A stretch of 48,872 nt of DNA from Paenibacillus sp. 598K (lineage in GTDB: Bacteria; Bacillota; Bacilli; Paenibacillales; Paenibacillaceae). Every line of letters starts with the position of its first letter. Positions within the stretch are counted from its first letter, which is position 1. The stretch covers positions 1 to 48,872 of the forward strand of contig NZ_BFBX01000005.1 of NCBI RefSeq assembly GCF_003851045.1, in the 5' to 3' direction. Below the pieces are notes generated by a model. The model was not told the origin of the DNA, made no database searches, and saw only the letters and a list, made by a program, of their open reading frames with translations. The position numbers and the translations under genes were made by a program. This document shows positions 5,907 to 14,076 of this stretch, piece after piece.

Positions 5907-6740
5907 TTAAGAGGTGCGCTCCTCTGTAGCGTCCGGACTCGCTTCTTCGGCATAGCGAGCCAGCGCCTTGGCCGAGGACTCCCGCATCCGGTGGATCAGA
6001 TAGTCGCCCTCGATGACGCGTACCCGCCTGCCGAGGAAACGGAGCTTGGAGAGCAGATACTCGATCTCGTCGCCGAGCAGCGAGACGCGCACGTGGTAGA
6101 TGTCTCCAGCGCTGTCGTAGTCGACCGTCTTCTCGAAGCTGGAGAAGGCGTACAGGATCCGCGAGAGCTCGGCGTTGTACATCGGTACGATCTCGATGAG
6201 CGCCTCGGTGCGGCGGGCGGCGATCGCCTCGACGATCCGCGCTTGGGCGCGCTCGGCGGTACGCGGGTCTAGCGGCTCTGCGGCGAAGGAGCGGATCTTC
6301 TGCAGCCGCGTGCTCATGAGCGACGGTTGGCGCAGACGATACCAGAGCAGGTACCACTCGCGCTTCACCATCGAGTATTCCAGCTTGTAGGGCAGTCCGG
6401 GGTGATCGGTATACTCGCGGTCGTCCCGGACCGCATAGGTGAGGCGCACCCCTTGGCGCTCGGCGATCAGACGCCGCAGCGGTCGCAGATGCGGATGGTA
6501 CACCTGCCGCTCGCGGGAGCGCGCCTTCTCGATGAGATGGCGGGAGACATCGAGCTCTTCCTCAGGGGCGAGCACCGCGCGCAGCTTGGCCAGCGTATCG
6601 GGCGCGAACGCTTCGGTAGCAGCCGGATGCGCCAGCATCGTCTTCAGCCAGGCCCGCTCATGCGAGGTGACGGTGAAGGTGCCGGCGTCCTCCAGACGCG
6701 TCATGATCTGGTGGTTGAATATTTTTTCAAACAGATTCAT
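5907..6740 (-). CDS. WYL-domain protein without HTH (WYL plus WCX-like C-terminal domain). Partner of the upstream regulator.
   Basis: ...DHPGLPYKLEYSMVKREWYLLWYRLRQ... is a WYL signature, and the C-terminus reads RVRVIEGDYLIHRMRESS. The start overlaps the upstream gene by 14 nt, which suggests translational coupling. Confidence 0.6.
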   Translation of the reverse strand: MNLFEKIFNHQIMTRLEDAGTFTVTSHERAWLKTMLAHPAATEAFAPDTLAKLRAVLAPEEELDVSRHLIEKARSRERQVYHPHLRPLRRLIAERQGVRLTYAVRDDREYTDHPGLPYKLEYSMVKREWYLLWYRLRQPSLMSTRLQKIRSFAAEPLDPRTAERAQARIVEAIAARRTEALIEIVPMYNAELSRILYAFSSFEKTVDYDSAGDIYHVRVSLLGDEIEYLLSKLRFLGRRVRVIEGDYLIHRMRESSAKALARYAEEASPDATEERTS

Positions 6741-8052
6741 AGGTCGATTGTATCTCCTTCCATTCCGCGATCATCTCTCTCCGCAGCTGCAGCGGCTCCA
6801 ACACCTCGCAGCTCGAGCCGAAGCTCCGCAGCCACGGCCTGATCTCCGTCGTGCCATTGACAGTAATCTCGTAGACGAACGCCTCTTCATCCTCCTCGAC
6901 GATCTGCCCCCACTGTCCCTGCAGCAGCACCCGCTCCTTGACGAAGTTCCGCTCCAGGCCCGGATGGTAGAAGCGGGCGCGCACGGTGACCGGCTTGCCG
7001 GTGTCGATGAGCCAGCTATACCGCATCTTCTCCGCCAGCTCCGCTTGCTTGTCCTCGTACGATGCCGCGTCCACGGCATCCTCCAGCTCGATCTGAGTCA
7101 GTCCCTCCAGCCTGTACTTGCGTATGCCCTCTCGGCCATGCGAGAGCAGGTACCAGCGTCCGTACTGATGGTCGTACACCAGCTTGAGCGGCAGCGCCCG
7201 CTGCTGCTTGCCCTCCGTCTCCCGCTCGAACAGCGGATTCGTGTTGCGCGAGGCGTAGCTGCGCTCGGACTTCGGCGAGAAGTACAGGAAGCGCACCCGA
7301 AGCCGCCGCTCTATCGCGTGCAGCAGCGTGAACAGATGCGCCTCGTCGAGCACCCGCGAGTGGTAGTGATACTTGTACAGGAATGGCTCCAGCTCATGCG
7401 TCTGCGCTTGCCCGCGCAGCAGATGCTTTTTGAGACTGTCGCGCAGCAGGTAGCCCTGGACCGAGGGGAGCTGCGTATTGGCCATCACATCGATATAGTC
7501 GTACAGGTCGAGCAGCTCCTCGGGCGACAGCGACTGGATCAGATCGTCGTTGACCCGATAGCGATAAGGGCGCGCCCCGCTCTCCCGGCGGATGACGCCG
7601 ACGCTCTCCAGATACTTCAGGTCGCTGCGGATCGTCTTCTCGTCCGGCATCGGCATCTCCTCGGTCGTCGCATTCTCGCCTTCGGGCGGGCTGCAGCAGA
7701 TGTCCAGCAGCTCCATCACCGTCAAGGCTTGCCCGTCCATCGCCGACAGCAGCAGCGAGAGCCGGTAGCTCTCGGACGCCTTGACCGACTTGGCGCGGAA
7801 CAGGAACAGCAGCAGCGGGTCGGCCGAATCGTAGTAGTTGTAGCGGATCGCCTCCGACCATTCCCGGCTCTGCTCTTGCGTCAGATGCTGATGCATCGAG
7901 CCCAGCACCTCCTTGAGCCGACGGATCGTCTTGTCGAACGTATGGACGGAGATGCCGAGCCGCTCGGCGAACTGCGTCCGCGTGAACGCCCCGCTCGTCA
8001 GCGCCAGCATCCGCAGGATCTGGATTTCCTTGTCGAAGCTTTCCTTGGCCAC
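6727..8052 (-). CDS. HTH-WYL-WCX transcriptional regulator (PafB/PafC/BrxR/CapW-like architecture). GTG start at 8052.
   Basis: N-terminal HTH (TRTQFAERLGISVHTFDKTIRRL), a second wHTH, then WYL (YDHQYGRWYLLSHGREGIRKYRLEGL) and a C-terminal WCX-like domain. AAGGAGG RBS 8 nt upstream of the GTG. Confidence 0.7.
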   Translation of the reverse strand: MAKESFDKEIQILRMLALTSGAFTRTQFAERLGISVHTFDKTIRRLKEVLGSMHQHLTQEQSREWSEAIRYNYYDSADPLLLFLFRAKSVKASESYRLSLLLSAMDGQALTVMELLDICCSPPEGENATTEEMPMPDEKTIRSDLKYLESVGVIRRESGARPYRYRVNDDLIQSLSPEELLDLYDYIDVMANTQLPSVQGYLLRDSLKKHLLRGQAQTHELEPFLYKYHYHSRVLDEAHLFTLLHAIERRLRVRFLYFSPKSERSYASRNTNPLFERETEGKQQRALPLKLVYDHQYGRWYLLSHGREGIRKYRLEGLTQIELEDAVDAASYEDKQAELAEKMRYSWLIDTGKPVTVRARFYHPGLERNFVKERVLLQGQWGQIVEEDEEAFVYEITVNGTTEIRPWLRSFGSSCEVLEPLQLRREMIAEWKEIQSTYESV

Positions 8053-8659
8053 GCGTCATCCTCCTTCAGGGGGCGATATGTACACAGTCTTTTTTTCATT
8101 GTAACAGGAGTCGTCATACTTCTGCCATGTTCGGATCGGTCGAGATGCGCGATGATAGATGCTGTAAGGCGCCGGTGCGGCGCTTTGCCATCATTACAAG
8201 CGCTTATGCGGCGGTCGTAACGAGGCGAGGATGTCAGACATCCTGCAGTGCCGGGCCTGGTAGGCTGCGGTATCCTGTACGGCTGGACCGGTAAGTGCAG
8301 GCGGGGTTCGATTCCCCAATCGCTTAGGGAGCGATCTATGGTATAGAGCTACTCGACTGCAAATCGAGCGATGCAACAACTCACAAGGGACCTGAGGATG
8401 GAATCCCGGGCGGCAAGGGCGTGCAGGCACGTCCTAGTACAAGCGCGCTGCCGACCGGCTATGCAATCTGCGGATACCGACGGGCGGGAAGCGGGAGCAA
8501 GACAGGAGAGAGACGAGGCGGGGGGATGGTCGAAGTCGGGCCGCGCCTCGCTCGGACCTCCTCTGCGAAGCTCTGGCGGACGCTCGTCTCAAGCGAGATT
8601 CCGCCGCTCCGGCAGGGGGATTCCGATCCGATGGCACGTATGAACAGGGGGAGTATGAC

Positions 8660-9775
8660 ATGTACAACAAGATCATCATCCAAGCCGACCAACGCGGTCT
8701 GCTGATGCATAAAGGAAGCTATGAGAAAAAGCTGATGCCAGGCACCTATCGCTATGCGCCTTGGTCGGAGCGGACCGTAGTCGTCATGAATACGTCGAAG
8801 CCATTCGTCGTCGAGGGCAAGGAGGTCCAGGTATTCCTGCAAGACAAGGCGCTGGCCAGCGAGCTCGACGTCGTCCGCGTCGCCGACCATGAGTATGTCC
8901 TGCACTACGAGGACGGCCAGTTCGCAGGGCTGCTGAAGCCTGGCGTTCATGCCTTCTGGAATGTGCTGAAGAAGCATACGTTCGTCCATGCCGATACGCG
9001 AAACCCCGAGCTGCCTGCCGAGGTGAGCCGGGCGGTCGTCGCCAAGCTGGGCGTCTACGTGCAGTCGCACGAGGTCGGCAGCGGCGAGGTCGGGTTCCTG
9101 TACTACGATCATGTGCTGCAGCGCCAGCTGTCGCCAGGCAAGTACAGCTACTGGAAGGGACCGGTGACGGTCGCGGTCCGCACGGTCGAGCTGCGCCAGC
9201 AGCAGATGGAGCTGATCGGGCAGGAGATCATGACTGAGGACAAGGTGACGCTGCGGCTTAACTTCGTCTGCCAGTACCGGATCGCAGAGCCGGAGCGCAT
9301 CCTGGAGATGAAGTCGCATGAGGAGCAGATCCACATCCTGCTGCAGCTCGCGCTGCGCGAGTATGTCGGCACGCTGCGGCTCGACGACTTGCTGAAGCGC
9401 AAGGAGGAGGCGGCATCGTTCGTCCTCTCCCGACTGCGGGAGCGGGAGGCGGAGCTGGGCATCCAGTTCCTGAATGCTGGCGTGAAGGACATCATCCTGC
9501 CCGGCGAGATGAAGGCGATCCTCAACACGGTGTTGATGGCGGAGAAAAAGGCGCAGGCCAACCTCATCACGCGCCGCGAGGAGACGGCCTCGACCCGGAG
9601 CCTGCTCAACACGGCCAAGCTGATGGACGAGAACCGCACGCTGTACCGGCTCAAGGAGCTGGAGTTCCTCGAAAAAATCTCCGAGAACATCGGCTCACTC
9701 TCGGTATCCGGCGGCGGCGATCTGCTCGAGCGGCTGACCGGGCTGCTTGGCGAGAGCCGGGGAGCGGAGCGATAG
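8660..9775 (+). CDS. SPFH/band-7 (stomatin/slipin-like) domain protein with an atypical soluble N-terminus
   Basis: SPFH core reads TEDKVTLRLNFVCQYRIAEPERI...IILPGEMKAILNTVLMAEKKAQANLITRREETA. No TM helix. The N-terminal 180 aa carry three PG-x-[YH]-x-[YF]-W repeats. Confidence 0.75.
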   Translation: MYNKIIIQADQRGLLMHKGSYEKKLMPGTYRYAPWSERTVVVMNTSKPFVVEGKEVQVFLQDKALASELDVVRVADHEYVLHYEDGQFAGLLKPGVHAFWNVLKKHTFVHADTRNPELPAEVSRAVVAKLGVYVQSHEVGSGEVGFLYYDHVLQRQLSPGKYSYWKGPVTVAVRTVELRQQQMELIGQEIMTEDKVTLRLNFVCQYRIAEPERILEMKSHEEQIHILLQLALREYVGTLRLDDLLKRKEEAASFVLSRLREREAELGIQFLNAGVKDIILPGEMKAILNTVLMAEKKAQANLITRREETASTRSLLNTAKLMDENRTLYRLKELEFLEKISENIGSLSVSGGGDLLERLTGLLGESRGAER

Positions 9776-9955
9776 CCATTGAAGCGTCTGTGGGAGGACG
9801 AGAAGACGAAGATGCAGAAGGTGCGGAGGGCTGGACATAAAGGGCCCGAAGGGGGCGGGCTTCCCAGGTGAAACCGCTGGGCAACTGACCGCCTCTTCGG
9901 AGCAGCGTCGGATGAGCGAAATAGAGGAACAAAGGCGCACTGGAGGGGGATAGGT

Positions 9956-10783
9956 ATGAAGAAGAGTGAACAAGAGGAGCGGGAAGCGAGCGTAATCCAG
10001 GTAGATCGGCATGCGGACATCGTTGCGGCGCTGGAGCGTATCGAGCGCGAGGAACGAGTCCGCATTCTGTACGCCTGCGAGTCGGGCAGTCGCGCCTGGG
10101 GCTTCCCGTCGAAGGACAGCGACTACGACGTCCGTTTTCTCTATGTACGGCGCCCCGACGACTATCTGTCGATTTTCGAGCGGCGCGATGTGATCGAGCA
10201 GCCGATCAGCGAGCTGCTGGACATCAACGGCTGGGACCTGCGCAAGGCGCTGCTGCTGTTCCGCAAGTCGAACCCGCCCTTGCTCGAATGGCTGCAATCG
10301 CCGATTATCTATCGTGAGAACGGGGCGGTTGCCGATCAGATTCGAGCGCTGGCTGCGGGCGCCTTCTCCGCTCGCGCCTGCACGTACCACTACCTGCACA
10401 TGGCTCGGGGCAACTACCGCGAGTATTTGCAGTGCGAGCGCGTCAAGATCAAAAAATACTTCTACGTCCTGCGCCCGATCCTGGCCTGCGAATGGATCGA
10501 TCGCTACCGGACAATGCCGCCGCTCGCCTTCGAAGCGCTGGTCGAGGCGATGGTACCGCAAGGCAGCGAACTGAGACGCACGATAGACGAGCTGCTGGCG
10601 CGCAAGAAGGCCGGAGACGAGCTGGACATTGAGCCGCGGATCGCAGTGTTGAATGACTATCTCGATGAGCAGTTGGCCCTGTATGATCAGCGGGCGGCGG
10701 AGCTGCCGACCTCAGGCGAGGGAGTGGACGAACGGCTGGATGCCTTGTTCCGATCGGCGCTGCGAGAAGCTTGGGAGAGCTAG
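9956..10783 (+). CDS. Pol-beta-superfamily nucleotidyltransferase (RlaP/YcgL-like, PF10127-type)
   Basis: The motif GSRAWGFPSKDSDYDVRFLYV is the nucleotidyltransferase hG[GS]...D.D active-site region. The C-terminus is helical. Assigned from memory of B. subtilis YcgL-like proteins. Confidence 0.65.
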   Translation: MKKSEQEEREASVIQVDRHADIVAALERIEREERVRILYACESGSRAWGFPSKDSDYDVRFLYVRRPDDYLSIFERRDVIEQPISELLDINGWDLRKALLLFRKSNPPLLEWLQSPIIYRENGAVADQIRALAAGAFSARACTYHYLHMARGNYREYLQCERVKIKKYFYVLRPILACEWIDRYRTMPPLAFEALVEAMVPQGSELRRTIDELLARKKAGDELDIEPRIAVLNDYLDEQLALYDQRAAELPTSGEGVDERLDALFRSALREAWES

Positions 10784-11388
10784 AGGTGACTTGGCAGACC
10801 GTGCTGATACATTGTAAGACTATTCGTATGCTGGCGCAGTACTGCGATCGTCTGTGGGTGGGGCTGTGCGTAGATGGTCGGATAGTCGAATTCGCCGTAC
10901 GCCTCCCTGATCGGAAATGCGAGACGTTCCTCGGTTAACGAGAATTCGGCACAGATGCCGGGCTTGTTGCCGCGCGCGTCCAGACGTATCCATTTGTTTA
11001 GGGAAGCGATATAGACAGCATTCAGGGCATGGATGCAGTAGCCGGTGTCCGGCTCATCTCCAAGCGTCAGCCGCTGATAGCAGAACCCGGCGGGGATCGC
11101 AGCTCTCCTCAGGATGGCGCAGAGCAGGTTGGACTTGGCATAGCAGATGCCTTCTCCGAACTCCAGCACCTCCGAAGCCGCGCATGTTACCCGAGTGCTC
11201 TGGATATCCCAGGCATGAGAGATGTTATCGCGGACCCATTCATAGGCGTGACGGATATATTCCTCCTGGCTCCGGGAGGCGGTCGTCAGCCTTTCGACCA
11301 GCTCGCCGATCCGAGGGTCGCTGTAGTCGACCTCCGTCGTTTCTTCCAGATAGTCCTGCAGATTGTCAGACTCGCAGATGAGTTGCAT
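10780..11388 (-). CDS. Transglutaminase-like cysteine-peptidase superfamily protein (202 aa). Start placed at the internal ATG 11388 with an AAAGGAG RBS.
   Basis: GEGICYAKSNLLCAILRRAAIPAGFCYQRL...H...D is a transglutaminase-like core. The longer ORF in the track (to 11535) runs through the tandem repeats and lacks an RBS. Confidence 0.65.
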   Translation of the reverse strand: MQLICESDNLQDYLEETTEVDYSDPRIGELVERLTTASRSQEEYIRHAYEWVRDNISHAWDIQSTRVTCAASEVLEFGEGICYAKSNLLCAILRRAAIPAGFCYQRLTLGDEPDTGYCIHALNAVYIASLNKWIRLDARGNKPGICAEFSLTEERLAFPIREAYGEFDYPTIYAQPHPQTIAVLRQHTNSLTMYQHGLPSHL

Positions 11389-11492
11389 AGGTGAGGCTCC
11401 TTTCGTGGATTGAGATTGAATTAATATACTATAAAACGAATTTTTATTCAATTCTAGATCGGCGACTCCATCTCCAACCTGTAATACCGCCC

Positions 11493-11648
11493 GGCGCGCC
11501 ACTGTAACTCTAGTTTGTAGAGTTATTCGGTCCACGGCCCGCCTGGCGCGCCACTGTAACTCTAGTTTGTAGAGTTAATCGGTCCACGGCCCGCCCGACG
11601 CGCCGCTGCAACTCTAGTTTGTAGAGTTATTCGGCCCACGGCCCGCTC
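11493..11648. repeat. 3 tandem copies of a ~52-bp unit, each containing the palindrome TAACTCTA-gtttg-TAGAGTTA
   Basis: Direct reading gives GGCGCGCCACTGTAACTCTAGTTTGTAGAGTTATTCGGTCCACGGCCCGCC x3 with a few substitutions. The array lies upstream of the AT-rich promoter region of the 10780..11388 gene. Confidence 0.85.
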
Positions 11649-11742: not shown

Positions 11743-12492
11743 CTACCGTTTCGCGATAATACCGAAACGGTCTGCGGTAGTGCGGATGCCGCGGTTGGTG
11801 CGATGCGTCTCGATGTAGCGCTCGAGTATCCGCAGGTCGTCCGTTTCGCGGCCGAAGTCTGGGATGATCGGTGTATGCGTCAGCAGGAAGATCAGATCGT
11901 CGACGGTCTCATAATACTCCGTGACCGTGTAGTCGAACGCACGGATATCCCGGAAGCCCGCTGCCTCCAGCTCGGCGCAGCATCGCGCCTGGAGGGCGCC
12001 GGGCTGCTCGCCCCAGCTCTGGCCGCGTCCGAACGCTTCCTTGAGCTGGTGCTTGTCGCCTTCGCCGACCTGCTGCGTCACGAAGACGCCGTCGGCTGTC
12101 AGCACGCGGGCGATCTCCTCCGCATGCCACTCGGAATGGCGGGAGGAGACGAGGTCGAACAGGCCGTCCGGGAAGACGAGCCGCTCCGCCTCCATCTGCA
12201 GGAAGCGCGCGTGCGCGTGACCAGCGCGGGCGGCGTTGCGCTTCGCCGTCTCGATCATCTCGGACGAGCGGTCGATGCCGATGAGCAGACGCACCGTCCC
12301 GGCGATCGAGAGCGCTGCCTCGCCGCCGCCGGTGCCGATGTCCAGCAGTAGTGATGCAGGCGTAGCGTGCGCGGCCACTTCGTGGTACATCTCCCAGGGC
12401 GCGCCTTCGGTTACGCACTTCACTCGGCTGAAGTCCCAGCCGTTCGTGCGGCCGATCGCATTATAGAAGGTTTTGTAGTCAAAGTTGTTCAT
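11743..12492 (-). CDS. Class I SAM-dependent methyltransferase
   Basis: Motif I reads LLDIGTGGGEAALSIA, with acidic motif II and FDLVSS downstream. GAAAGGTG RBS. Confidence 0.85.
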   Translation of the reverse strand: MNNFDYKTFYNAIGRTNGWDFSRVKCVTEGAPWEMYHEVAAHATPASLLLDIGTGGGEAALSIAGTVRLLIGIDRSSEMIETAKRNAARAGHAHARFLQMEAERLVFPDGLFDLVSSRHSEWHAEEIARVLTADGVFVTQQVGEGDKHQLKEAFGRGQSWGEQPGALQARCCAELEAAGFRDIRAFDYTVTEYYETVDDLIFLLTHTPIIPDFGRETDDLRILERYIETHRTNRGIRTTADRFGIIAKR

Positions 12493-12723: not shown

Positions 12724-14076
12724 GTGACAAGATCACAAGGGAAAGGCGGGCGTATCGTGGATGTCGTAAGCCAGTTGAGGATATTGAAGCAAATCTATAG
12801 CGAGAGCACAACATGGGATGAGGAGATGGGGGTGTCGGTGCATCGAATACCGTCAACCGTCACAGCACAGGAGCTGCAGGCGCTGGAGCAGGCGGGGCAT
12901 GCGCCGAACAACTGGGTCTATCCTGCGCATGACGAGACGTTGGCCGAGCTGAAGCGGCTCGTCGAGCGGTGGACGCTCGCCGAGGCTGCGGATGCCTTCG
13001 TCGCCTCACTCTGGTCGGCGCCGATGATCTGGCGCGCGCTGCTGCCGGGCAAGCTGCTGGCGGAGGCGATGCCTGAGCATGCGTACGAGCCGTATCCAAG
13101 CTCAGCCACCTGCCAAATCTGCGGCTTGGCGGACGGGGGTGGCGTCGACGCCAGTCTTCAGTGGTACTTCCGCATGATCGAGTCGACGCCGCTCGACGGC
13201 AACCCGCACGGGTACGTGCTGGCGCTGCGCGAGCTGGCGGCTGCCGGTCAGGTGCCGCAGCCGACAGCGTCGGACCGCTATGCGCTGCGTCGCCTGCTGA
13301 CGATACTGAGAGAGCTGCCGCCCAAGACGCGTTATAGCAAGATCGATCCGCTCCTCAAGAAGGAAGCGCTGCTGCCCGTACGCGACAAATATCCCTATCG
13401 CGGCCTGCTCGAGACGCTTGGTCTGATCGGCGTCCTCGACACGGAGGCGTACCCGGGACTGGCGACGACCTTCCTGCCGTACCGCAAGCGGGACGAACGT
13501 CCCAATACGAGGGTGGAAATCCAGGCCCCGCTCGCATGGTGGGACTCCTCGGTCGGCATCAATGAGCGTACGCTGGCACAGTTGTTCGGGGCCTACGACT
13601 TGACCGAGGTCTCGGCGTCGGACAAGCCCGAGCCCGTCCCCGCGCTGGCAGAGACGGTGACCGGAGCGCTGGCCAGCAGGAAGGCGCCGCGCGCCGCTAC
13701 GCCCAAGGCATCCCCGGACGCAGGCAAGGGGCCGGTGGAGGCGGGGGATGTGTATGCGGTGCGCATCCGCGAGGGCGCATGGGTGACCGTCTACTGCCAT
13801 GAAGTCAAGGACAATCGGGCCCGCGTCGAATACATGGACGGCATCTATGCAGATATGCCGTCCAAGGCAGAGCTGAGCCAGACATTCCGTCCGCGACGAG
13901 ACGGCAGATGGCAGTGCCGCTCGGCGTCGATCGACTCGACGAGTTGGGTCCGGCGTATCGCTCGAGGGATCGCTTGTCCGCAGTCAGAGCTGCCGGAGCC
14001 GGATCGCTTCCCCTTCCATGGCGCCAAGGATTTGGCGCATATGGCCAACTGGTGCTTTCCCGAGTTGAAATCCTGA
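12724..14076 (+). CDS. Hypothetical protein (about 440-450 aa). The start is ambiguous: GTG at 12724 or GTG at 12757.
   Basis: Long ORF with coding-like composition and no recognisable motif. Contains CQICGLADGGG. Confidence 0.5.
   Translation: MTRSQGKGGRIVDVVSQLRILKQIYSESTTWDEEMGVSVHRIPSTVTAQELQALEQAGHAPNNWVYPAHDETLAELKRLVERWTLAEAADAFVASLWSAPMIWRALLPGKLLAEAMPEHAYEPYPSSATCQICGLADGGGVDASLQWYFRMIESTPLDGNPHGYVLALRELAAAGQVPQPTASDRYALRRLLTILRELPPKTRYSKIDPLLKKEALLPVRDKYPYRGLLETLGLIGVLDTEAYPGLATTFLPYRKRDERPNTRVEIQAPLAWWDSSVGINERTLAQLFGAYDLTEVSASDKPEPVPALAETVTGALASRKAPRAATPKASPDAGKGPVEAGDVYAVRIREGAWVTVYCHEVKDNRARVEYMDGIYADMPSKAELSQTFRPRRDGRWQCRSASIDSTSWVRRIARGIACPQSELPEPDRFPFHGAKDLAHMANWCFPELKS

Follow-up and report, generated by a model that had tools for sequence, protein, structure and literature searches.

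At positions 5907-10783 of a 48.9-kb stretch of Paenibacillus DNA (called the window below, by which the whole stretch is meant), two overlapping genes for WYL-domain proteins, here named WYL-L and WYL-S for the large and the small partner, lie divergent from a gene for an SPFH/Band-7 protein, which is followed by a gene for an RlaP-family nucleotidyltransferase. A gap of 607 bp (8053-8659) separates WYL-L from the SPFH gene. By comparing this unit with related loci of other species, we found that the conserved association of the WYL pair is one with RNA repair, in which SPFH is an optional module, that a 22-nt site (motif A) stands before the repair cassettes, and that the gap encodes a structured RNA with a circularly permuted tRNA-like domain. 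A first-pass annotation of this DNA had described the gap as some 600 bp rich in leader sequence; the length was right, and the content is a promoter and operator region together with a structured non-coding RNA gene, not leader.

The components of the cassettes are already known from comparative genomics: Band-7, RlaP and a tRNA-like RNA were named as RNA-repair components by Burroughs & Aravind (2016, Nucleic Acids Research, as cited in 10.1101/312249 and PMC6514570), and papers from the Aravind laboratory make the general statement that RNA-repair pathways are under the control of WYL and CARF transcription factors. In the searchable literature, we found no description of an obligate large/small WYL pair with a lopsided distribution of helix-turn-helix (HTH) domains, none of the 22-nt regulon motif and its promoter anatomy, and no covariation-tested structure or search model for an SPFH-associated RNA with a permuted tRNA-like core. 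The locus supplies testable parts, namely a two-gene WYL regulator, a near-invariant 22-nt site that predicts the regulon in hundreds of Paenibacillaceae genomes, and, for an RNA family that Rfam lacks and that accompanies SPFH genes in very different bacteria, a model supported by covariation.

The WYL pair and the divergent RNA-repair cassettes

Relatives of WYL-L were present in 381 species in a scan of one genome per species; 80 loci, from Paenibacillaceae, were kept with their 10-kb flanks, all their open reading frames (ORFs) were clustered and the recurrent clusters were annotated with Pfam. Orthologues of WYL-L are 69-94% identical in hundreds of Paenibacillus species. WYL-S directly follows WYL-L with an overlap of ~11-14 nt in 80 of the 80 loci, so that the arrangement is not a product of chance, and the pair is obligate and probably translationally coupled. 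In the window, the ATG of WYL-S lies within the last codons of WYL-L (ATGAATCTGTTTGA) with AAGGAG upstream of it, and the ORFs confirm the 14-nt overlap given in the first-pass annotation.

Divergent from the pair, 73 of the 80 loci carry an RNA-repair cassette with at least one of RlaP, RtcB, Ro60, SPFH and Hen1-Pnkp, and 76 do so if three contig-truncated loci with motif A are counted as well. RlaP is found in this position in 56 loci, RtcB in 47, Ro60 (TROVE) in 18, SPFH in 16, and Hen1 with the kinase-phosphatase-ligase Pnkp in ~10, the TROVE/Ro60, RtcB, Hen1 and Pnkp proteins being identified by Pfam. RtcB and Pnkp-Hen1 are RNA-repair ligase systems. Ro60 and SPFH take the same first slot of the operon and never occur together. 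Because SPFH is present in 16 loci only and has Ro60 as its alternative in that slot, the link of the WYL pair is to RNA repair and not to SPFH as such. The earlier proposal of a unit made of the WYL pair, SPFH and the nucleotidyltransferase holds as far as a functional link is concerned; a conserved neighbourhood with SPFH, on which it had been staked, is not what the comparison returned, as the conserved partner is the repair cassette and the pair often occurs without SPFH. The cassette of the window itself is minimal and consists of the RNA, SPFH and RlaP. Regulation of the neighbouring ABC transporter genes by the pair was considered and rejected, since the transporters are not conserved beside it. 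Between RlaP and RtcB, a 520-570-aa protein without Pfam match recurs (cluster c15; L006:4656-6221 on the minus strand, L007, L018, L040, L060, L066, L088 and L089); it is uncharacterised and a candidate for a part of the repair system.

WYL-L exceeds the Pfam cutoffs for HTH_11 (25.5 bits, cutoff 25), WYL (32.4, cutoff 21.8) and WCX (53.5, cutoff 23.9), and is laid out as HTH_11 (residues ~10-49), a second winged-helix region (~92-170), WYL (239-322) and WCX (354-434). PADLOC WYL models match it too, and the alignment with PDLC01457 starts at residue 110, which points to an extra HTH at the N-terminus. Its AlphaFold model is poor (predicted local distance difference test, pLDDT, 56), with DriD and PafBC as top Foldseek matches. 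WYL-S consists of a conserved helical N-terminus without HTH (1-80), WYL (~84-151) and WCX (~170-260). A profile check of this 277-aa protein, called for in the first-pass annotation, gave a divided answer: the Pfam WYL score remains below threshold (19.6 bits, cutoff 21.8), whereas a PADLOC WYL model spans residues 79-260 (4.4e-11). The AlphaFold model of WYL-S (pLDDT ~90 over residues 80-260) matches the structures of DriD, PafBC, BrxR, CapW and WYL1 in Foldseek with E values down to 1.4e-8 and probability 1.0, in agreement with the likeness to PafBC, BrxR, CapW and DriD suggested before, and on the strength of this model and the PADLOC match we take WYL-S as a WYL-WCX protein despite the sub-cutoff Pfam score.

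An NCBI protein of Paenibacillus sp. 598K matches WYL-S at 100% identity. The family of WYL-S is small, with 39 clusters at E<=1e-30 in a profile search against 1.84 billion representative proteins. Its remoter relatives are ordinary regulators of 315-345 aa with ~60-80 extra N-terminal residues that are absent from WYL-S, which justifies the term HTH-less; that the first WYL gene alone encodes HTH domains had been claimed correctly. Both proteins have WYL followed by WCX, as in the HTH-WYL-WCX class. With respect to a winged helix on every subunit they depart from that class, WYL-L having HTH_11 plus a second winged-HTH-like region and WYL-S having none. Sequence and profile searches gave no PDB relative for either protein, and BLASTP detected no similarity between WYL-L and WYL-S.

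The two genes on the other side of the gap were also named correctly in the earlier annotation. The SPFH protein matches Pfam Band_7 at residues 138-308 (3.8e-25) and is a soluble protein of the slipin type, with an N-terminal extension of 137 residues and no obvious membrane segment. The nucleotidyltransferase matches the RlaP profile over nearly its full length (8.2e-95, 317.6 bits, profile positions 3-248 of 249), and its relatives stand beside RtcB, Ro60 or Hen1, so that both the full profile and the RNA-repair neighbourhood expected of this family are present. RlaP adds one or two nucleoside monophosphates to the 3'-OH of damaged RNA and restores the aminoacylation of repaired tRNA and the function of over-trimmed tRNA (PMC12776372).

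Table 1. Features of the analysed unit, with positions in the window
Feature	Position	Strand	Remarks
WYL-S, 277 aa	5907-6740	-	WYL-WCX, no HTH; predicted partner subunit
WYL-L, 441 aa	6727-8052	-	HTH_11, WYL and WCX, all above Pfam cutoffs; predicted regulator subunit
Probable promoter of WYL operon, extended -10 TGTTACAAT	8098-8106	-	near-consensus
Motif A, 22 nt, TCGTCATACTTCTGCCATGTTC	8111-8132	+	3 mismatches to family consensus TCGTAATACTTTCGCCATGTTC
Putative weak -10, GATGAT	8151-8156	+	18 nt downstream of motif A; family pattern GANNAT
SPFH-associated RNA	8219-8479	+	~150-260 nt; modelled core 8226-8373
Hairpin H1	8228-8244	+	RNA core
Long hairpin H3	8245-8278	+	RNA core
Small hairpin H4	8280-8290	+	RNA core
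T-arm GGGGTTCGATTCCCC	8303-8317	+	RNA core
Acceptor-like hairpin	8318-8336	+	RNA core; capped by 7-nt loop
D-like segment (GGTA)	8337-8351	+	RNA core; some homologues have a canonical GCTCAGTGGTAGAGC D-arm
Anticodon-like arm, loop CUGCAAA	8352-8368	+	RNA core; 7-nt C-U-N-N-N-A-A loop in the family
Conserved 3' domain ending GGATACCG	to 8479	+	sequence conservation
SPFH/Band-7 protein, 371 aa	8660-9775	+	Pfam Band_7
RlaP-family Pol-beta nucleotidyltransferase, 275 aa	9956-10783	+	Pfam PF10127

Motif A and the probable promoters of the gap

Alignment of the DNA upstream of WYL-L across the loci exposed motif A, which is read here in the direction of the repair genes. Its two halves are TCGTAATACTT and CCATGTTCG. 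With up to 4 mismatches allowed, it was found once in the window, against 0 matches expected by chance, and the 1.6 Mb of the 80 loci contain 92 sites, each just upstream of a repair cassette and in one fixed orientation. The same site precedes second cassettes 5-10 kb away from the WYL pair (Hen1-Pnkp in L006, L012, L013, L015, L042, L059 and L075), Ro60 cassettes parted from the pair by MoxR-VWA genes (L016, L027, L030 and L069) and SPFH cassettes on contigs other than that of the pair (L081-L083). As motif A marks every cassette, including the unlinked ones, it defines a regulon, and this genus-wide set of RtcB, Hen1-Pnkp and Ro60 cassettes is probably under control of the WYL pair.

Over 87 distinct promoters, positions 1-11 and 15-23 of motif A are essentially invariant and are followed by nine variable bases, AAAT(g/a)AGC and the hexamer GANNAT, of which A2 is conserved in 100%, A5 in 94% and T6 in 99%. 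Neither a -35-like hexamer nor a TG extension was found at this promoter. We read GANNAT as a weak -10 without -35, which would put motif A at about -52 to -31, and this position together with the poor core promoter favours activation. Motif A is asymmetric and bipartite, as would fit a complex that has both its HTH domains on one chain, and we regard it as a site to which the WYL pair putatively binds. Palindromic operators, which the earlier annotation had advised to look for in 8053-8659, did not turn up, the repeat finder giving short pairs at chance level only. TACTTT within motif A was tried as a -10 and rejected, its last base varying freely.

The extended -10 on the other strand is probably the promoter of the pair itself, judged from its sequence: CCTG(T/C)TACAAT lies ~35-45 nt before the WYL-L start in nearly all 80 loci. 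Between this -10 and motif A most species have ~45 nt. In the window and in its 95%-identical relative L084, a deletion of ~45 bp (at 8107-8110) leaves 4 nt; the missing stretch is itself conserved in most species (…AAAGTTTTCCATTTCAxCCAAxTCCCTCC…, e.g. L004 9919-9965).

In much more distant metagenomic loci, with SPFH proteins 45-59% identical to that of the window, a large (430-455 aa, WYL+WCX) and a small WYL/WCX gene, 21-30% identical to the window pair, flank the RNA, SPFH and RtcB or RlaP (L115, L124 and L134), and single large WYL homologues are present in at least eight further distant loci; tandem WYL pairs thus recur in distant lineages. Motif A is absent there, being confined to Paenibacillaceae-like sequences. 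That the pair recurs beside RNA-SPFH-RtcB where motif A is lacking points to the two-gene WYL unit, rather than the DNA motif, as the ancient regulatory partner of the cassette.

Two further arrangements with motif A were seen. It also precedes a 707-aa protein without Pfam match (c114) or a second RtcB by way of a different conserved leader (…cttcaggctattgccatccttccttctac…; L036:14130-16511, L055:13004-15382 and L079:6775-7469), and this leader may represent one more RNA element in the regulon. Moreover, genes for a MoxR-type AAA+ ATPase and a VWA/DUF2201 metallopeptidase-like protein are repeatedly divergent from Ro60 or Hen1 cassettes, with motif A in the common intergenic region (L016:6637-9650, L027, L030, L069, L012:17503-20501 and L078).

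The structured RNA upstream of the SPFH gene

The T-arm-like sequence of the gap led us to compare the gaps of the SPFH-bearing loci, among which ~260 nt proved strongly conserved. The elements of the core follow each other in the order T, acceptor-3', cap, acceptor-5', D and anticodon, which makes it a circularly permuted tRNA-like domain, and the break of the permutation lies at the variable region. The structure of 38 pairs was tested for covariation on an alignment of 34 sequences, with partners slid by 1-3 columns and 500 shuffles as controls. Standard pairs fill 91.1% of the cells compared to 32-43% with slid partners, 24 of the 38 pairs have changed on both sides compared to 12 ± 1.8 in the shuffles (0 of 500 reach 24), and the covariation score is 0.259 compared to ~0.06. 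Many conserved pairs are G-U, so that the RNA is read from the plus strand, that of SPFH.

A covariance model of this RNA (R1) was scanned over the first 83 loci and 70 metagenomic SPFH loci. It scores 120 bits in the window, by construction since the window belongs to the training set, and 114 bits in L084, which like many others lies outside that set. Among the first 83 loci none with an intact SPFH gene was missed, and the 19 Paenibacillaceae loci with a further match have it directly upstream of SPFH. The 64 loci without SPFH gave no credible match to R1, the one hit of 17.9 bits being a chance match beside a tRNA. The exception among the SPFH loci is L043 (9851-10001), which by a deletion has lost the RNA together with the first ~68 SPFH codons. 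L101 lacks the same parts, and in both assemblies the promoter leader runs directly into the middle of SPFH; the module seems to have undergone a natural deletion there or to be a pseudogene. Of the metagenomic loci, 51 of 70 matched, always on the SPFH strand and with the match ending ~150-520 nt upstream of the start codon, at SPFH identities reaching down to 44% and GC contents of 27-62%; most loci without a match are cut off by contig ends. We predict that SPFH is the protein that partners this RNA or serves as its scaffold.

Rfam 15 had nothing for the SPFH-associated RNA, the whole window being searched at the gathering threshold and the gap at E<=10, which gave noise; ARAGORN called no tRNA in the window and recognised none of the SPFH-associated RNAs. 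Burroughs & Aravind (2016), as reported in 10.1101/312249, predicted a tRNA associated with band 7, named b7a-tRNA, next to RtcB that is said to look very much like a genuine tRNA, and the RNA described here is probably this b7a-tRNA or a lineage form of it. The expected position, a non-coding RNA next to Band-7/SPFH in an RNA-repair neighbourhood, agrees: R1 matches lie upstream of SPFH, with RtcB and/or RlaP in the same cassettes, and Ro60 with its Y RNA is the alternative scaffold. As for the resemblance, T, acceptor, D and anticodon-like elements covary, but their order is permuted and both ARAGORN and the Rfam tRNA model are silent. In comparison with the b7a-tRNA systems as they are described there, the window cassette has no ligase, and its RNA is ~260 nt long, with a capped acceptor in the permuted tRNA-like part, and is missed by tRNA finders.

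The RNA can also be compared to YrlA, the Y RNA that works with Ro60 (Rsr). The effector domain of YrlA mimics tRNA with a capped acceptor stem and is encoded just upstream of the protein partner, and sister Paenibacillus species have a Ro60 gene and such an RNA at exactly this spot behind motif A. In contrast to YrlA, the partner here is SPFH, the break lies in the variable-loop region with the anticodon-like hairpin intact, and H1, H3 and the 3' domain are specific to the SPFH RNA. In the Ro60 cassettes (L001, L003, L006, L016, L022 and others), a sequence ~60-200 nt downstream of motif A resembles a Y RNA and includes a tRNA T-arm (GGTTCGAGTCC); this sequence has a CGAGGCG block in common with the SPFH-associated RNA. 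A search of the Ro60 and SPFH loci with Rfam returned a weak tRNA match only, in L016 (31.9 bits).

Among the alternative structures considered, the long-range pairing GGGGTTC/GAATCCC proposed by RNAalifold was rejected, as divergent homologues keep the local T-hairpin by compensatory changes. Long-range pairings of GCAGTGC/GGTATCC at the 5' side with GCACTGC/GGATACC at the 3' side cross each other, compete with the well-supported H3 and are broken in several sequences; they show one compensatory change at the level of a clade and may represent an alternative conformation.

In distant SPFH loci (L109, L116, L120, L124, L152 and L112), the tRNA-like RNA is duplicated: ~300-480 nt upstream of the SPFH gene, two T-arm/capped-acceptor modules stand in tandem and enclose a canonical D-arm (TAGCTCAGNNGGTAGAGCA). 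These RNAs, too, go unrecognised by Rfam 15 and ARAGORN. In the window, the sequence between the RNA and the SPFH ribosome-binding site (8590-8640) contains a direct repeat of GATTCCG (AGCGAGATTCCG / AGGGGGATTCCG), and a similar arrangement, GATTCCGCC...GGATTCC, recurs upstream of the SPFH genes of L082 and L083 and, less clearly, of L081; this repeat may be a further conserved leader element.

Proposed control of RNA repair by the WYL pair

Taken as a whole, the picture of 5907-10783 as one RNA-repair regulatory unit is the one we hold to be likely. WYL-L and WYL-S would assemble as its two subunits into a hetero-oligomeric transcription factor similar to PafBC, expressed from its own promoter, which would bind motif A by the two HTH domains of WYL-L. 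The WYL domains would sense a sign of nucleic-acid damage, which analogy suggests to be single-stranded nucleic acid or RNA fragments whose ends are unusual, upon which the ligand-bound complex would bring RNA polymerase to the weak GANNAT promoter of the divergent operon. The transcript would yield the tRNA-like RNA, SPFH and RlaP, of which SPFH and the RNA would assemble into a scaffold ribonucleoprotein, the counterpart of Ro60-Y RNA in the same slot of sister species, and RlaP would rebuild trimmed RNA 3' ends; ligation would come from a motif-A cassette elsewhere in the genome.

In this model, the WYL pair, most likely a regulator dedicated to the repair genes, probably plays the role that RtcR plays in proteobacteria. 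When damaged tRNA is sensed, RtcR activates rsr-yrlBA-rtcBA (PMC7790460), and in P. aeruginosa an SPFH gene lies inside the RtcR-controlled rtc locus. Like the WYL pair as modelled here, RtcR of Salmonella and E. coli is a divergently encoded, ligand-sensing regulator of an RNA-repair operon, among whose products there can be a scaffold protein, tRNA-like RNAs and RtcB. RtcR is a CARF-AAA+-HTH activator of sigma-54 promoters, whereas here the sensor domains are WYL/WCX, the promoter is not sigma-54-like and there are two subunits; Pfam finds neither a CARF nor an AAA+ sigma-54-interaction domain in either WYL protein, so that the analogy is one of function only.

PafB and PafC are encoded by two adjacent WYL genes and form a heterodimer that controls the actinobacterial DNA-damage response. 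The activators PafBC and DriD act at promoters that lack a normal -35. With PafBC and with DriD of Caulobacter, the WYL pair has in common the HTH-WYL-WCX fold, of which these two are the top structural matches, and with PafB/PafC also the adjacency of the genes. Differences are that the window proteins have no detectable sequence similarity to the solved ones, that one subunit has no HTH and the other has two, that the targets are RNA-repair instead of DNA-repair genes, and that the DNA motif is another. Where PafBC is actinobacterial, neighbours the Pup-proteasome genes and recognises the RecA-NDp motif, the present pair is found in Paenibacillus next to RNA-repair genes, with a motif (TCGTAATACTTTCGCCATGTTC) that we take to be unrelated to RecA-NDp. 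Going by the titles of their PDB entries, single-stranded nucleic acid is what triggers the WYL activators DriD and PafBC.

More tentatively, and with somewhat less than even confidence, we propose that the WYL complex is the first WYL sensor of RNA damage, a two-subunit, sigma-A-dependent counterpart of RtcR with a regulon of RtcB, Pnkp-Hen1, RlaP, Ro60-Y RNA and SPFH-tRNA-like RNA, and that SPFH and the permuted RNA make up a new ribonucleoprotein scaffold like that of Ro60 and Y RNA. If true, WYL domains, linked until now to signalling in DNA damage and phage defence, would extend to RNA-integrity surveillance.

Several points weigh against this picture. Binding of motif A by the WYL pair is something we infer from their co-localisation. 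The second HTH of WYL-L is moderately supported because the AlphaFold model is poor. Four loci (L014, L026, L063 and L070) have the WYL pair with neither an adjacent cassette nor motif A. RtcB, Ro60, Hen1 and Pnkp are absent from the whole 48.9 kb of the window, so that repair would here need an unlinked ligase. The SPFH-associated RNA could function as a 5' leader only. In the window, motif A abuts the -10 of the WYL operon in a way unlike most relatives, and regulation may differ there accordingly. Finally, a site that overlaps the -35 region fits a repressor equally well by position alone.

On the direction of control, we give activation by the WYL pair an even chance. Doubtful, though to be taken seriously, is the alternative that the pair, in the manner of BrxR and CapW, is a repressor released by its ligand, which would sit on motif A over the -35 position and block RNA polymerase until a damage signal arrives. 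Most characterised HTH-WYL-WCX regulators beside their target operons are repressors (cf. PMC13622015), the structures of BrxR and CapW are among the Foldseek matches, and in the window the abutting -10 of the pair would bring autorepression. A promoter with neither a -35 nor a TG extension and with GANNAT as its only -10 would however be weak unaided and leave little to repress, and the best structural matches, DriD and PafBC, as well as the functional analogue RtcR are activators.

Considerably less probable is that motif A and its hexamer form an alternative-sigma promoter or the site of another regulator, with the WYL pair a mere neighbour or a self-regulator. Motif A is unusually long and invariant for an operator, is asymmetric, lies at promoter distance from a conserved hexamer and also precedes cassettes far from any WYL gene. 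As sigma-54 (TGGC-N-TTAC), extracytoplasmic-function (ECF; AAC-N15-CGA) or sigma-D promoter, it was nevertheless rejected, since these consensus sequences either point away from the repair genes or misfit in key bases or spacings. The WYL pair, moreover, is the only regulator consistently present, stays with RNA-SPFH-RtcB in the lineages that lack motif A, and with both HTH domains on one chain suits an asymmetric bipartite site.

The stress or defence unit of the first-pass annotation, in the form of a novel anti-phage or abortive-infection effector pair of SPFH and nucleotidyltransferase under a WYL sensor, would agree with the frequent control of defence systems by WYL regulators, with the occurrence of nucleotidyltransferases and SPFH proteins in some such systems and with the supposed use of RNA repair against ribotoxins in conflicts, but is highly improbable: Band-7, RlaP and tRNA-like RNA have already been described as RNA-repair components, the nucleotidyltransferase is a strong match to a family that extends RNA 3' ends, RtcB, Pnkp-Hen1 and Ro60 share its slot and motif, PADLOC has no match for SPFH or RlaP and only generic WYL models on the regulators, and the genes are chromosomal, conserved vertically and genus-wide at 60-78% identity, with none in the plasmid or phage collections searched.

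Downstream of the unit, the window contains a transglutaminase-like gene (10780-11535), a methyltransferase gene (11743-12492) whose PADLOC match to 'mad2' (1.7e-16) probably reflects generic methyltransferase similarity, and, at 12724-14076 on the plus strand, a 450-aa ORF without Pfam or PADLOC match; none of the three is conserved next to the WYL pair.

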